DNA from: an uncultured Methanosarcinaceae archaeon | GTDB taxonomy: Archaea > Halobacteriota > Methanosarcinia > Methanosarcinales > Methanosarcinaceae | Direction of reading: 5' to 3' | Length of the DNA stretch: 64,000 nucleotides | NCBI GenBank assembly: GCA_963727895.1 | Contig: CAVSHT010000011.1 | Location: forward strand, 32,001-96,000 | Shown here: positions 9,005 through 59,183 of the stretch, piece after piece | Layout: every line of letters starts with the position of its first letter | How positions within the stretch are numbered: the first letter of the stretch is position 1 | Program-made: the position numbers and the translations under genes | Notes under the pieces: generated by a model | Told to the model about the DNA's origin: nothing | Databases searched by the model: none | The model's input: the letters and a program-made list of their open reading frames with translations, nothing else

Positions 9005-10969
9005 ATGATGTTAAAGAGAATAAAAATTGGGCATTGTTACTTAAATATATCTCATTGTTACTTAAATATATCTAGTTCTTTATTTCTGTATTTCATCAAT
9101 AGAATAACCGAGTACTTTAGCATTTCAAGACTCTTCGTATAACACTTTGTTTTTCTTCTCAACCTTGCCAGAAAGTGCCTCAATATGCTGTTATATCTCC
9201 TTCAACAGTATACGTTTCTGCTTTTGATTGAGTATGACTCTTTTCTGGAAGAAACTCTGCATATGCTCTCCAGTGATCTGTCATCACTTCTCCAATCTCT
9301 TTTTTCTTCAATTTTTCCCAGAGTAGTTTTCCAGTTTCCGTTCCTCTGCTGCCAAAAGAGCAGTTGATGAACTTTTTCCCAACTCTATCAACAGCAATCC
9401 AGATCCAGCAATATTTTTTTTGTTACCGATGTAAGTGTGCATCTCATCCATTTCAACAATAGATATCTCATTTTCACTTTTTAGGTTCTCTAACTCTTGA
9501 CCAAATTTCTTGATCCATCTTTGGACAGAAACATGACTCACCCCTAAAACTCTTCCTATTTAGCGAAAGCCCAATCCTTCAAGGTAAAGTTGTAAAGCCT
9601 GTTTTTTAACAGAGGCGGAAAAAGCAGTTGATTTTAGCTCTACTGTATAGTTATAGCCACAATCATGGCATTTGTAGCGTTGACGCCCGCCAACTATACC
9701 ATTCTTTTTGTGACTGGAGCTATTGCATCTGGGGCAGTTCATGAAGAAATATACTTTCTAATAATATATAACTATGTTTAAGTATCAAAGCCCAAAATTG
9801 AAATAGAAATACTTGTTTTGATGATACTGTTTATTGGAGTAATATGTGTAGCCTCAGCATCTGCTGACAGTAATCAAGATACACAGTCAAAGGGTACGAT
9901 TTCTGAATTCAACGATTCAAATTCACAGAGTGACCTGTTACCCGATTTTAGTCCTCTGACTTTTCAGAATTTGAAAAATGATCCTAATGTTTTAGCTACA
10001 AAAGGGCAAATTCCACAGTATGCTACTCAAGCAGAAAGACAAAATTGGCTTGATAAACTTGATATAACATATAAATTAACAGGGGATGAGATGAGCCCAT
10101 ACGCGTACCCAAAAGGACCATTATTAGCGCACGGGTTTAACTTCGATGGATATATTGAAGTTGTGTTCTATAAAGGAATGAATGTCTCAGATTCTCAAAT
10201 TAATGAAATATATAACGTAATAAATAAAAAAGTAAATGAGGCATCTGTACAGGATGTTCTTGTTGTTTTCAAAAAAAGCGATTTTTTCCAAGATGCTATC
10301 GCAACTGAAGACGTAGGAACAGCTAATGAAACATCAAATTTGTCAGTATCTGAAGAAAAAAACGTTAAAATATTCAATAATTCAAGCACTAATAATTCTG
10401 ATAGTGCAGACAACATTCCACAACGTTTACCACTTACCTTTGGTCCGGAGACTCTTGATAAACTGAAAAGTGATCCAAATTTTATTGCTGCTTATGGAAG
10501 TATACCCTCTTTTTCAGCGTTGGAAGAAAGAAAACAGTGGCTTGATAAACTGAATAATGTATATCAAGGAGCTATATCGGAAATATCAAAATATGAGTAT
10601 CCAAATGGCCCTGTTACATCTTTTGGTTATACCATTGATGGTGTTATTCAGGTAGGGATTAATAGGAGTAGGACAGTTGATAAGCCTTTTATGGATGAAA
10701 TCTATCAGATTCTTGACTCAAACGCAAATAGGATGGAGATTAAGGAAATCCCTGTGGTTTTCGTGCATGAAGATAATCCTGTGCCAACAGTTAAAATTGA
10801 TCCAATCATTAAAACCGCGAATTCATCGGTATATGGAGAAAAAAACTCTGTAGAATTAAATAATAACTCAAGTGGAAATAAATCGAGCAAAAATAACTCT
10901 ATTCCAGATATTGGGGTATTGGGAAGCTTGATATGCCTGTGTAGTGGATGGAGACTCAGAAAAATGTAA
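9005..10969 (+). pseudogene. Secreted/surface protein with two internal repeats, signal peptide interrupted by IS1
   Basis: ATG 9005 after AGGAG joins in frame across the IS to give MMLKRIKIEIEILVLMILFIG; duplicated domain (LKxDPN...WLDKL...YPxGP...DG); PGF-CTERM-like tail. Confidence 0.75.
9030..9792 (-). mobile_element. IS1-family insertion sequence, defective
   Basis: GGCATTG/CAAAGCC ends; 8-bp TSD AAAAATTG/CAAAATTG; InsA Zn-finger CPRC...CHDC; internal TAA and a 2-bp insertion. Confidence 0.9.
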
Positions 10970-13160: not shown

Positions 13161-13903
13161 GGCATTGGTAATTAAAAATAGATATATATGCTTATAACAT
13201 ATATTTCTTCATGAACTGCCCCCAGATGCAATAGTTCTAATTACAAAAAGAATGGTATAGTTGGCGGGCGTCAACGGTACAAATGCTCTGATTGTGGCTA
13301 TAACTATATAGTAGAGCTAAAATCAACTGCTTTTTCCGTCTCTGTTAAAAAACAGGCTTTACAACTTTACCTTGAAGGATTGGGCTTTCGCTAAATAGGA
13401 AGAGTTTTAGGGGTGAGTCATGTTTCTGTCCAAAAATGGATACAGAAATTTGGTCAGGAGTTAGAGGACCTAAAAAGCGAAAATGAGATATCTATTGTTG
13501 AAATGGATGAGATGCACACTTACATCGGTAACAAAAAAAATATTGCTGGATCTGGATTGCTGTTGATAGAGTTGGGAAAAAGTTTATCAACTGCTCTTTT
13601 GATAGCAGAGGAACGGAAACTGGAAAACTACTCTGGGAAAAATTGAAGAAAAAAGAGATTGGAGAAGTGATGACAGATCACTGGAGAGCATATGCAGAGT
13701 TTCTTCCAGAAAAGAGTCATACTCAATCAAAAGCAGAAACGTATACTGTTGAAGGAGATATAACAGCATATTGAGGCACTTTCTGGCAAGGTTGAGAAGA
13801 AAAACAAAGTGTTATACGAAGAGTCTTGAAATGCTAAAGTACTCGGTTATTCTATTGATGAAATAAAGAAATAAAGAACTAGATATATTTAAGTAACAAT
13901 GCC
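13161..13903 (+). mobile_element. IS1-family insertion sequence, defective
   Basis: GGCATTG...CAATGCC ends; perfect 8-bp TSD TATAATTG; near-identical to 9030-9792. Confidence 0.92.
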
Positions 13904-46036: not shown

Positions 46037-46799
46037 GGCATTGTTACTTAAATAGATCTAATTATTTATTGGGCATTGTTAACTAAACATAGTTAACTCT
46101 TTATTTCTTTATTTCATCAATAGAATAACCTAGTACTTTAGCATTTCAAGACTCTTCGTATAACACTTTGTCTTTCTTCTCAACCTTGCTAAAAAATGCC
46201 TCAATATGCTGTTATATCCTTCAACAGTATACGTTTTTGCTTTGGATTGAGTATGACTCTTTTCAGGAAGAAACTCTGCATATGCCCTCCAGTGATCTGT
46301 CATCACTTCTCCAATCTCTTTTTTCTTCAATTTTTCCCAGAGTAGTTTTCCAGTTTATGTTCCTCTGCTACCAAAAGAGCAGTTGATGAACTTTTTCCCA
46401 ACTCTATCAACAGCAATCCAGATACAGCAATATTTTTTTTGTTACCGATGTAAGTGTGCATCTCATCCATTTCAACAATAGATATCTCATTTTCACTTTT
46501 TAGGTTCTCTCACTCTTGACCAAATTTCTTTATCAATTTTTGGACAGAAACATGACTTACCCCTAAAACTCGTCCTATTGAGCGAAAGCCCAATCCTTCA
46601 AGATAGAGTTGTAAAGCCTGTCTTTTTACAGAAGCGGAAAAAGCAGTTGATTTTAGCTCTACTATATAGTTATATCCACAATCAGAGCATTTGTACCGTT
46701 GACGCCTGCCAACTATACCATTCTTTTTGTGATTAGAACTATTGCATCTGGGGCAGTTAATGAAGAAATATACTTTCTCTATGTTTAAGTATCAATGCC
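46037..46799 (-). mobile_element. IS1-family insertion sequence, defective, with doubled right end
   Basis: GGCATTG ends; TSD AAAAAGAA; start ATG changed to ATT; premature TAG; second inner IR at about 46072. Confidence 0.9.
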
Positions 46800-56301: not shown

Positions 56302-56934
56302 GGGTAAGCTCCCTCAATAGTTTTCCGAATAGTGATTTTAGACTAAAGGATATTGTATGGAGTTAGACAGGGAAATAATCAAAGTTACTATTTTATAAGA
56401 AATATGTCATTAATTCTCTGGTACGAACACAATACCAATATCTTCATGATATAAAAAATACTCTCTACTTTTAAAAAGAGGATGTATTAAATATATTAGT
56501 AAGTAGTGATGAAACTGGATTAAAAAAGTTTTGTAGAAAAACTATCAAAACCAGCTTAAATAATCTGATTAAATATGAAAAACGGAGTTAAGTCATTTAA
56601 TTCAAATAAATAGAGATTAGTTACTTATTCGATTGTCTACAAAACCAAAAAATGTGAATATATAAGGCAATGGTTAAAATTTCAGCTACTTTAAAACATG
56701 GAATAGGAAAGAAAAGGTCAGAAAAGTATAATTTATCTAACCATAAAGTGACTCCTTAATCGCAAAAATATTCTGAATAATTTTTTCATGCTTTTCTTGC
56801 TATGAACCTGAAATTTATGAACTTGAATTAATTCTCATTTATAACCTAAAACGCACATGCTTTTCTTCGAATAACAAGCACAACTAATGAAAGTACTCTC
56901 CGTTCTTTTTTTTGACTATTAAGTCCTCATTACC

Positions 56935-57068
56935 TTGGGCAGTAAGGTTGTCTTGATTTTGGTTTTTCAAAACCGTCCTAAAACTAATCAGTGAATTGCC
57001 ATCGAAGGCTCAAGTGTGACTTTGATCACGGATGCTAAATTGGCCTTTTAGGCAATTCCACTGCCCAA
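56935..57068 (+). ncRNA. Candidate bridge/seek RNA in the IS110 5' non-coding region
   Basis: Closing stem TTGGGCAGT/ACTGCCCAA enclosing two stem-internal-loop-hairpin arms. Confidence 0.6.
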
Positions 57069-57087
57069 ATAAATTTGGTGATCTAAT

Positions 57088-58352
57088 TTGATTGAAGTCA
57101 TAAACAAAGCTTGTGGTTTAGACATTCACAAACTCTTTTTCATTGCTACAATTTTCAGTAGATCTGGTGAAAAACAACAGCAACGTTTCAACAGAGATGA
57201 TGAAGGAATTTTAGCCCTTAAAAATTGGGTAATATCAGAAAAATGTGATGTTGTTGCATGTGAATCAACCAGCTACTTTTGGGTTCCGATTCATGATTCA
57301 TTGGTAAAGCATCTAACTGTGATAGTTGGAAATGCGCGAGATATGAAGGTATTTACCCATACAAAAACATATAAGATTGACTCAGAAGTCATTGCACAAC
57401 TTGCACTTAATAATATGATTCAGCCATCAAGAGTTTTTCCAAAGGATCATATAGATTTTAGATCATATGTTCGACTTCGGTTAACACTTGTACAAAAAAG
57501 AACAGATTTAAAAAATAAAGCTCACTCAATTCTTGCATCTGAAATTCAATTTTTGCATCTGAAATGCTACACCTGAATAATGTGCTGACAGACGTTTTTG
57601 GCAAGAATGGCAGAATGATCTTATTAGGAATCTCTTCAGGTAAGAGTGTTGGTCAGATTATTGCAAGCCTCTCTCCAAATGTTCGGAAAAAAGCTGCTCA
57701 GATAAGAGAAATTCTTGATCGAGAAATTTCTCAAAGTGCTGCATTCAGACTTCAGATCTGTCTGAAACTCATAAAAAGTCTTGATGATGAACTCGAAGCT
57801 TTAGAAACAGAAATTTTCAATTATGCTTCTCGAAATCATAAGCGAGAAATGGAGATTTTAATGTCAGTTCCAGGTATAGGGGAACTTGGTGCGGCAATTT
57901 TACTTGCTGAAATAGGCAACTTTAAGGATTTTTCTTCTGGAAATAAGCTTGCTTCTTGGCTTGGTCTAGTTCCTAATGTGTATCAATCTACAGATAAATA
58001 CTATAACGGCAGAATCACAAAGAGGGGATCAAAAGTAGCAAGGTGGATTCTGACACAGATTGCTCAAGCAGCAGCAAGAAAGAAGAATAGCAGGTTAAAA
58101 GAGTTTTTTAACAGAAAAAAGAAGTCGATTGGACATGCAAAAGCAATTATTGTCTTAGCAAGGAAAATTGCAACGATACTATGGCATCTTATTACAAACG
58201 ATGAGATGGACGAAGATGAAACCGGATATCAAAAGGGAGAAATCCAAAAGAGAAAGATTATTGAAACTGAGATTTTTTAGGTTGATGAACGGATTAAAAT
58301 AATTAGTGGAATATTTGCGATTATGGGGAAAAAGGATCAAGAGAGCACGTGA
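57088..58352 (+). pseudogene. IS110 DEDD transposase/recombinase, inactivated
   Basis: GLDIHK, CEST, KTYKID (D to Y), SVPGIG, YQS; 20-bp tandem duplication 57526-57565 shifts the frame; likely premature TAG at 58278. Confidence 0.9.
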
Positions 58353-58439
58353 GGATAATCTCCTCATGTACTTTCATGCTAAACTGATGTAGATAGGATT
58401 AAAAGATATAATATTTTCAAATATACAATTTCCCAAAGT

Positions 58440-59183
58440 TTAACTTTCCTCTGCAATCTTTAGCAGAATATATATCATGCAGACCATAAAAAGTATTGAA
58501 AACAAAAGGGACTGGACAAAGCTGACTTTAAACTGCAGGCTTGAAGGTAGTATGAAATAGAGGAAAAATAAACATATAAGTAGTAAAAAACCTCCAAAAG
58601 CTAAATTCAAAGAATATTTATCATTTCCAGGTACATTGCGGCTTTTCTTTCCTGCGAAATCCAAAGAACCTTTTTTAAATTTATTACATACAGATGAAAA
58701 CCAATTAAGCCTTTTTCCTGACTTTGGACGAGAAGTCCTATTTATAGATAGTGAAATTGAAGGCTTTTGAAAGATAAATTCTTCGTTTCTATCCTCTACA
58801 TAGGACTCATCTTTTGATTGAGCCTGAGGCTGTGGATCAATTTTTCCAAGCTTTACTGGAAAACCTTTTTTTCTTGAGCCATAACCCGCCGTGATATAGA
58901 TCTGCCCTTCTATGAACACATTTCCTTCTAGAGGAATTCTTGCAACTGCGGAAATATATTCTTTTTGAAGCACATACGGGTTATCTCTCAAAAAAGTGAT
59001 TCTGCCTTTCAATTCTTCACTTACTGAGAGATGAATATGGGTAGGAGACCCGTAGTTTGTGATAAGAATCTCAAAGGTTTCTTCTTCGCCGGGAGAAAGA
59101 GGAATCTCGACATGTTCTTTTTCAAATTCAATTGAGTCTATTTCCTGTCGGTTGAGAACAACATTCTGGAATATCTGCTGCAA
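58440..59183 (-). CDS. Hypothetical protein with two C-terminal TM helices
   Basis: 247-aa ORF directly following trm112. Confidence 0.7.
   Translation of the reverse strand: MQQIFQNVVLNRQEIDSIEFEKEHVEIPLSPGEEETFEILITNYGSPTHIHLSVSEELKGRITFLRDNPYVLQKEYISAVARIPLEGNVFIEGQIYITAGYGSRKKGFPVKLGKIDPQPQAQSKDESYVEDRNEEFIFQKPSISLSINRTSRPKSGKRLNWFSSVCNKFKKGSLDFAGKKSRNVPGNDKYSLNLAFGGFLLLICLFFLYFILPSSLQFKVSFVQSLLFSILFMVCMIYILLKIAEES

Follow-up and report, generated by a model that had tools for sequence, protein, structure and literature searches.

Does the long non-coding left end of an archaeal IS110-family insertion sequence encode a bridge RNA and, if it does, what would the loops of that RNA recognize? 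We address this question for one element in a 64,000-nucleotide (nt) stretch of DNA from an uncultured Methanosarcinaceae archaeon (the window, meaning the whole stretch; positions are window coordinates). The host assembly is 3.67 Mb in 19 contigs and is 84% complete. Bridge RNAs are a recently discovered means of programming DNA recombination, and to our knowledge nearly all experiments on them concern bacterial elements. We predict that the left end of this Methanosarcina IS110 element encodes a + strand bridge RNA, upstream of and co-directional with the recombinase gene, and put the probability of this at about 0.88. A preliminary description of the locus had proposed an archaeal RNA-guided recombination system. 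That inference was right: loops covary with the flanks and with the right end, stems carry compensatory changes, and the relatives are methanogens. Of the details given with it, the boundary was wrong, as were one stem and two of four sequence matches.

The ends of the element come from its other copies. About 20 full-length copies, plus fragments, align from 56845-56847 to 58383 when the region is compared by BLAST with the genome of the window, so that the left end first proposed (56884) lies about 35 nt too far in, and the circle junction predicted from that misplaced end (...GCTAAACTAATGAAAG...) is wrong. Comparison of empty with occupied sites points instead to a circle junction reading ...TTCATGCT-AA-ACGCACATG... 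The element comprises the following features.

56849..58382, + strand: IS110-family insertion sequence of about 1.53 kilobases, from left core AA to right core AA (about 20 genome copies and their junctions)
56849..56850, + strand: left core dinucleotide AA, TT on the other strand (empty versus occupied sites; fixed-register table of 27 elements)
56851..57087, + strand: left non-coding end, 237 nt, predicted to hold the bridge RNA gene (conserved in homologues; covariance-model match)
57088..57576, + strand: N-terminal piece of the recombinase, DEDD_Tnp_IS110 (Pfam PF01548, E = 1e-17)
57370..57372, + strand: TAT (Tyr) codon at the third DEDD catalytic residue, which is GAT (Asp) in the homologue motif KKTDKIDSE (homologue comparison)
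57533..57552, ambiguous within about 57524-57552, + strand: 20-nt frameshifting insertion repeating TTGCATCTGAAAT, not in the 1519-nt copies
57564..58280, + strand: C-terminal piece of the recombinase, Transposase_20 (Pfam PF02371, E = 1.4e-26; Ser aligned to the IS621 catalytic Ser in 8wt6_A)
58281..58380, + strand: short right non-coding end, 100 nt, terminating in TTCATGCT (genome copies, homologue junction alignments)
58381..58382, + strand: right core dinucleotide AA (empty versus occupied sites; fixed-register table of 27 elements)

The fixed-register table covers 27 related archaeal elements with 42-100% protein identity, and its left-side anchors were set independently of the guides. 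Its left junction reads left target flank (LT)-AA-right donor (RD, the left end of the element) and its right junction left donor (LD, the right end)-AA-right target flank (RT). Most of the 27 elements have the core AA at each junction, there are no long terminal inverted repeats, and insertion is site-specific.

In the window copy the two recombinase frames (57088-57576 and 57564-58280) overlap. An uninterrupted sister copy (L015) encodes a 390 amino acid protein that matches the NCBIfam family NF033542, "IS110 family RNA-guided transposase", at 261 bits (cut-off 140). The same protein matches the IS621 transposase structure 8wt6 (E = 3.6e-9), in the C-terminal domain only, with a Ser aligned to the catalytic Ser region. 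The window copy reads KTYKID, versus KTDKID or a close Asp variant in each of the 26 other loci spanning the motif. Relatives in the family retain the full catalytic set of D, E, D, D and Ser. RNA-library contigs of relatives omit 20 nt at 57524 or 57533 and read G at 57370. As described earlier, the enzyme of this copy is broken, by the 20-nt frameshift and by Tyr at the catalytic Asp position.

The left end has a fold that would suit a bridge RNA. The stems are listed here, with the support for each.

56935..56943, + strand: P1, closing stem, 5' arm, pairs with 57060-57068 (inverted repeat, in the minimum free energy fold; 5/8 pairs compensatory)
56946..56950, + strand: P2, stem at the base of the target-binding loop, GGUUG, partner UAAUC at 56985-56989 (100% of cells paired in 14 sequences)
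56961..56974, + strand: P3, hairpin of the target-binding loop, GGUUUU UC AAAACC (4/5 pairs compensatory)
56985..56989, + strand: P2, 3' arm, UAAUC (homologue pairing; compensatory changes)
56993..57000, + strand: P4, outer stem of the donor-binding loop, GAAUUGCC, partner 57051-57058 (paired in 97% of cells, 14 close homologues)
57005..57009, + strand: P5, AAGGC, pairs with 57043-57047 (98.6% of cells paired)
57015..57030, + strand: terminal hairpin of the donor-binding loop, UGUGA CUUUGA UCACG (3/4 pairs compensatory in 37 sequences)
57043..57047, + strand: P5, 3' arm (homologue pairing)
57051..57058, + strand: P4, 3' arm (homologue pairing)
57060..57068, + strand: P1, 3' arm (inverted repeat; homologue pairing; compensatory changes)

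The minimum free energy fold of 56884-57087 reaches -49.8 kcal/mol (z = -2.48), and 4/200 shuffles were equally stable. It contains the closing stem TTGGGCAGT/ACTGCCCAA, a perfect inverted repeat of 9 base pairs (bp), and the arm-2 stems GAATTGCC/GGCAATTC, AAGGC/GCCTT and GTGA/TCAC, all of which had been noticed before. For arm 1, the inner helix GGTTTT/AAAACC is likewise present in this fold. The outer helix proposed with it, TGATT/AATCA, has only 59% of cells paired in the 14 close homologues, because TGATT belongs to a guide segment that is hypervariable; conservation is instead seen in the base stem GGTTG (56946-50) with TAATC (56985-89).

Stems are nearly invariant among the 14 close homologues (95.8% of cells paired, one compensatory pair), and with distant elements added 10/21 pairs show compensatory changes. 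An alignment of 37 sequences, made with a covariance model (R1), has compensatory changes with both sides altered in 15/21 stem pairs, including 3/4 pairs of P2 (for example C-G in 18 sequences and U-A in 15). In this alignment 95.4% of cells are paired, versus 81.2% in shuffles (0/500 reached the observed value) and 31-49% with partners slid. The model matches the window at 56932-57070 with 118.8 bits; a covariance model had been proposed as a check on the locus. G·U pairs are conserved at two positions in 14/14 close homologues and at another in 35/37 sequences of the larger alignment. On the other strand these pairs would be A·C, which makes the + strand the predicted folding strand. Comparison of homologues shows the candidate RNA as a closing stem enclosing two stem-loop modules. 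In one homologue (L042, in genome G129) the terminal loop of hairpin P3 is enlarged by an insertion of about 90 nt (columns 42-130 of alignment A1), and the remaining RNA is conserved.

The first module contains two predicted guides, and the non-coding ends of homologues consist of constant stems around such short hypervariable segments.

56951..56960, + strand: target guide 1, UCUUGAUUUU, reverse complement of core plus right flank, predicted to pair with the top strand (hypervariable; tracks right flanks)
56977..56984, + strand: target guide 2, CCUAAAAC, same sense as left flank plus core, predicted to pair with the bottom strand (tracks left flanks; permutation test)

Guide 1 reads UCUCGAUUUU in most sister copies, and the terminal AC of guide 2 equals the first two bases of the donor left end, in the manner of a handshake guide. 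Throughout the table of 27 elements, the arm-1 3' strand reads LT (4-6 nt)-AA-XX, where XX repeats the dinucleotide with which RD begins. Most elements have AC at XX; L049 and L050 have GA and L056 has AA, and the start of the donor changes identically. The 5' strand, reverse-complemented, reads AA-RT (about 7 nt). Left flanks match the 3' strand of their own element at 3.54/5 positions and those of other elements at 1.52/5 (26 elements); right flanks match the 5' strand at 4.45/7 versus 2.21/7 (20 elements, leaving aside seven that lack a located right end at contig ends or in degenerate copies). For neither flank did any of 20,000 permutations reach the observed value. The handshake dinucleotide matches the donor at 1.96/2 versus 0.37/2 (4/20,000 permutations; 26 elements), with both bases matching in 25/26 elements and one of two in the remaining one. 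The permutation tests also hold within each clade (0, 22, 0 and 13 of 20,000).

Individual elements illustrate the match. The arm-1 5' strand is ACUUAUUUU in G031, where the right junction is GCTAA/AATAAGT; CCGAUUUUU in G183, where the junction is AAATCGG; and CUUCGUGACUU in G034, where the junction is AAGGCACGAAG, a 10/11 match. Left-flank words that match the 3' strand include CAGAAAAC, GAAAAAAC and CTGCGGAAAC. Nine further loci found with R1, together with five identical copies in a complete Methanospirillum genome, again have the left-flank and right-end matches, and their right-flank match is weaker. Covariation shows arm 1 to be the predicted target-binding loop, in which both strands would pair with opposite target strands around the core. 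The loop-to-target comparison had been proposed in the preliminary description, which left guide assignment open; arm 1 is now assigned to the target and arm 2 to the donor. Its hint that arm 1 holds the circle junction does not survive. The supporting matches, AAACTAAT and ATCAG, fall in the guide end and the constant stem and linker UAAYCAG, and they are meaningless because this segment is unchanged in homologues with different flanks.

The second module contains one predicted guide.

57032..57040, + strand: donor guide, AUGCUAAAU, same sense as right end ATGCT plus core AA (10/11 match to the right end)

The loop strand ATGCTAAATTG (57032-42) and the right junction ATGCTAAACTG (58376-86) are identical at 10/11 positions, as reported before. 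Within the window the pattern ATGCTAAAYTG matches only at these two places, 57032 and 58376, against an expectation of 0.15; 1/100 shuffles reached two. In the table of 27 elements the arm-2 3' strand reads LD (5 nt)-AA plus two more bases, and this counterpart of the handshake bases matches only partially. Loop AUGCC or AUGCU equals right end ATGCC or ATGCT in 11/11 close homologues with a located right end, four of them C variants; the right end of G129 was not aligned and is outside this comparison. Distant elements have the variants ATGGG, ATGTG and ATAGG, and their ends were located using the guide itself. Arm 2 is the predicted donor-binding loop.

Taken alone, the donor-side match could be explained as a repeat of the right end inside the element. 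The loop matches might then act as DNA, either as copies of the ends that bind protein or as single-stranded DNA guides like those of IS200/IS605, and the RNA data given below consist of contigs only. We consider this very improbable. The arm-1 strands track flanks that lie outside the element (26 and 20 elements for the two sides), the stems stay paired by compensatory changes and by conserved G·U pairs, the latter workable only in a + strand RNA, and the protein belongs to the family whose RNA guidance has been demonstrated by experiment (PMC11208160, PMC11187229).

RNA-library contigs provide weak evidence of expression of a bridge RNA gene. The 24 RNA runs contain only 7-8% of the sampled words of the element. 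Four runs were aligned at 80% likeness, which yields assembled contigs of relatives, in which depth cannot rank the parts of the gene. These contigs cover 29/30 bins and extend over the non-coding end. One sample has a separate contig at about 56927-57082, with a word depth above that of the neighboring reading-frame contig, subject to the same limit on ranking. One contig (X2 record 18) extends from the non-coding end into the reading frame. Such a contig, with the position of the structure directly upstream of the start codon, would fit a 5' leader that regulates translation or stability of the recombinase, in which case the sequence matches would be coincidental. This explanation is the least probable of those considered here: flank tracking (0/20,000 permutations) is beyond chance, the T/C position of the donor loop covaries with the right end, and the handshake dinucleotide switches with the donor.

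Several observations weigh against a bridge RNA. A donor left-end (RD) guide was not found in the arm-2 5' strand or its hairpin, where covariation is inconsistent. GUGUG(AC)UUU could pair with AAACGCAC with two bases bulged, and this segment belongs to a conserved hairpin; the single variable position of this candidate covaries in only about 7/13 close homologues. Stems P4 and P5 of arm 2 lack covariation within the close clade of 14 homologues and were not aligned between clades. The alignment of 37 sequences is fitted to the model, which favors the structure, and the permutation tests overstate independence because the elements are related to each other. Right-flank matches are imperfect in many natural insertions (4/8 in the window copy). 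The RNA-library contigs show no transcript start, end or strand. A permissive Rfam search of 56400-58800 returned no matching family, only snoRNA and miRNA noise (E >= 1.4). An active copy could be missing, with only 84% of the genome assembled.

The predicted target can be seen in this genome. The left flank is the same sequence in 13/20 copies and the right flank is shared in 13/20, and both come from one repeat. This repeat is a 740-bp IS1-family element whose two frames match NF033558 at 126 and 103 bits. Its copies, about 240 in all, make up roughly 5% of the assembly (an example is G000:C8:63747-64486, or L078). The IS110 site lies within the IS1 transposase gene, in the part that encodes the helix-turn-helix (Pfam HTH_23), and reads ...CCCCTA-AA-AATCGTCC... 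Searching for the repeat without an insert found 165 empty sites.

...GACTTA CCCCTAAAACTCTT CCTATTGAGCG...: 95 empty sites
...CCCCTAAAAATCGT...: 37 empty sites
minor variants: 33 empty sites

AAATC-type sites, which match the 5'-strand guide better than AAAACTC sites, are occupied in 10/60 cases versus 3/107 (Fisher p = 0.002). When occupancy is limited to insertions with IS1 on both sides, the counts are 6/56 versus 3/107 and the difference is not significant (p = 0.064). The preferred and best-matching predicted target is inside the transposase gene of this IS1-family element. The flanks of the 20 copies are distributed as follows.

IS1 flank on both sides: 9 of 20 copies
IS1 flank on the left only: 4 of 20 copies
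IS1 flank on the right only: 4 of 20 copies
IS1 on neither side: 3 of 20 copies, the window copy among them

The one-sided flanks (8/20 copies) suggest rearrangements between copies, or insertions that match half a site. The site of the window copy, ...TTATAACCTA-AA-ACTGATG..., is outside the IS1 repeat and matches the guides poorly. The window itself contains three IS1 copies, each with an empty CCTAAAAC target site for IS110 (9543-9550 on the + strand, 13404-13411 on the - strand and 46562-46569 on the + strand). Next to the IS1 copy at G000:C8:63747-64486, about 400-1000 nt on its right side, is another repeat family with about 65-75 copies.

The protein-coding part of the family is damaged throughout the assembly. 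The 20-nt frame-breaking insertion is present in 16/20 copies. The third catalytic acidic codon is GAT in 10 copies and TAT in 5, and a pattern search did not find it in the remaining 5; TAT is the codon of the window copy and of the sole open frame. Searching the assembly for the family gave one full-length stop-free frame only and no other IS110 recombinase lineage above the cut-off. No copy found in the assembly was both open and catalytically intact, and the family therefore appears to be decaying here. The RNA gene is well kept, with 24 covariance-model matches at 106-120 bits. Insertion and Asp-to-Tyr codon are mosaic among copies, with all four combinations seen, which suggests gene conversion. 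In copy C5_291652 (1578 nt) the repeat motif occurs four times. There is also a remnant of the left end of a second, distant-type IS110 element (G000:C3:19146-19291, + strand; model match 58.9 bits) within an IS6-like transposase gene. Left flank and guide agree in this remnant (CCTGAAAC), which another IS6-like copy truncates and beside which there is no recombinase gene.

This damage raises the possibility that the bridge RNA gene is a relic in this genome and that homologous recombination, gene conversion or a recombinase acting in trans, not its own enzyme, accounts for most of the spread of the family. We regard this as possible, though unlikely. It would account for the insertion shared by 16/20 copies and the Asp-to-Tyr change shared by 5 in a mosaic, for the 8/20 copies with the IS1 target on one side only, and for a sole open frame that has Tyr. 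However, the broken copies sit at guide-matching sites and have intact RNA genes, which fits RNA-guided insertion with the protein supplied in trans, and an active copy may be unassembled, the assembly being 84% complete. Defective copies with intact RNA genes may be moved by a protein in trans.

Relatives of the element are found in Methanosarcina and other methanogens. A recombinase match at E <= 1e-20 is present in 80/201 genomes of the class, from 17/34 genera. Recombinase identities are 81-85% within the genus, 72% and 65% for intermediates and 42-47% for another family; the relatives include Methanosarcina species, Methanosarcinaceae metagenome assemblies, Methanospirillum, Methanoculleus and Methanoperedens. 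Other Methanosarcina species have kept open frames of 416 codons; genomes with open copies include G093 (9 copies) and G179 (6 copies). The R1 model finds the RNA in 12/151 sampled genomes of the phylum. Recombinase copies with 54-84% identity also occur on short contigs binned as bacterial (Oricola, Deltaproteobacteria and Cloacimonadota; L100, L121, L122 and L128), and L121 and L122 also have the RNA. These could be the result of mis-binning or transfer. The nearest plasmid-borne bacterial homologue, from Caballeronia (L079-L081, 33% identity), is inside an IS3-family element in 3/3 copies. The Caballeronia copies were considered as a control for guide order and dropped, because with all copies nested in the same IS3 element the ends cannot be defined.

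Archaeal IS110 recombinases are already in published surveys. The ISfinder Methanosarcina IS110 entries ISMac14, ISMba7, ISMba20 and ISMma5 form one Euryarchaeota cluster in a supplementary table of PMC11208160. They are archaeal IS110 recombinases of the same genus, and their motifs are CGIDVHKK... and GKKTDVEDSE, compared with CGLDIHK... and KKTDKIDSE here. The searched portion of that supplement has no direct match to the motifs of our element, and a prediction may exist elsewhere in it. Among the papers searched, none paired "bridge RNA" with "Methanosarcina".

The comparison with characterized systems draws on PMC11208160, PMC11208158 and PMC11187229. As in IS621, the predicted RNA is in a long left non-coding end upstream of a DEDD/Ser recombinase, and a closing stem is followed by a target-binding and then a donor-binding loop, each with guide strands flanking a hairpin. 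Also shared are the 2-nt core at the 3' ends of both target guides, the match of two bases following the 3'-strand guide to the other DNA (the handshake guide) and a target that is a repeated genomic element (PMC11208160, PMC11208158). In IS621, the left guides are on the 5' loop strands (LTG nt 50-58, LDG nt 123-130) and pair with the bottom strand, and the right guides are on the 3' loop strands (RTG nt 77-80, RDG nt 157-165, then the handshake bases) and pair with the top strand (PMC11208158, PMC11187229). In contrast, in all 27 elements here the top-strand-pairing guide is on the 5' strand and the bottom-strand-pairing guide on the 3' strand. Unlike IS621, the core on the gene-sense strand is AA, not CT (PMC11208160, PMC11208158), and the RD-side donor guide was not found in this element. 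The protein is also distant, with its match of E = 3.6e-9 confined to the C-terminal domain. On the antisense strand the arrangement would reproduce the IS621 scheme, with a 5' guide of about 7+2 nt that ends in the core, a 3' guide that starts at the core and then the handshake bases, and the antisense core TT would have the T that IS621 prefers at the second position. Because the host is an archaeon, a sigma-70 promoter re-formed at the circle junction should not be presumed here.

Seek RNAs of the IS1111 family have the top-strand-pairing segment first, and IS110-type ISEc21 has the reverse order (PMC11187229). The element shares with the IS1111 type a top-strand-complementary segment that precedes the bottom-strand-matching one, target footprints that overlap, and natural reprogramming among relatives. 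It differs in that the IS1111 non-coding region is downstream of the transposase gene, whereas the RNA here is upstream. IS1111 subterminal inverted repeats are 7-17 bp (PMC11187229), compared with ATGC/GCAY (3-4 bp) by the core in the close clade; some distant elements have a repeat of about 6 bp by the core. On the comparisons made here, the locus is a well-supported predicted member of the bridge-RNA systems in archaea, with a guide order that departs from the IS621 model.

If the IS621 model applies, the element would excise as a circle with the junction ...TTCATGCT-AA-ACGCACATG..., and a recombinase tetramer with its RNA would join this donor to a target reading ...CCTA-AA-AATCG..., with strand exchange at the AA/TT core. 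We tentatively suggest that the Methanosarcina and methanogen lineage has an undescribed bridge arrangement that combines the upstream RNA position of the IS110 type with the guide polarity of IS1111 seekRNAs. If so, the first strand to be exchanged would be the antisense strand of the element (core TT), and transcription of the RNA would presumably start from an archaeal promoter within the left end, not from one rebuilt at the circle junction. The RNA module would have turned relative to the recombination site in evolution, and systems this compact would suggest themselves as candidates for programmable recombination in methanogens.

For the family as a whole, the analysis adds a covariation-backed guide map for an archaeal lineage, with its predicted target loop, donor loop, AA core and handshake bases. 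For annotation, it would explain the 237-nt "non-coding" left end, and it corrects the boundaries of the element. For the host genome, it offers a probable example of one insertion sequence whose RNA directs it into the transposase gene of a second, highly abundant one.

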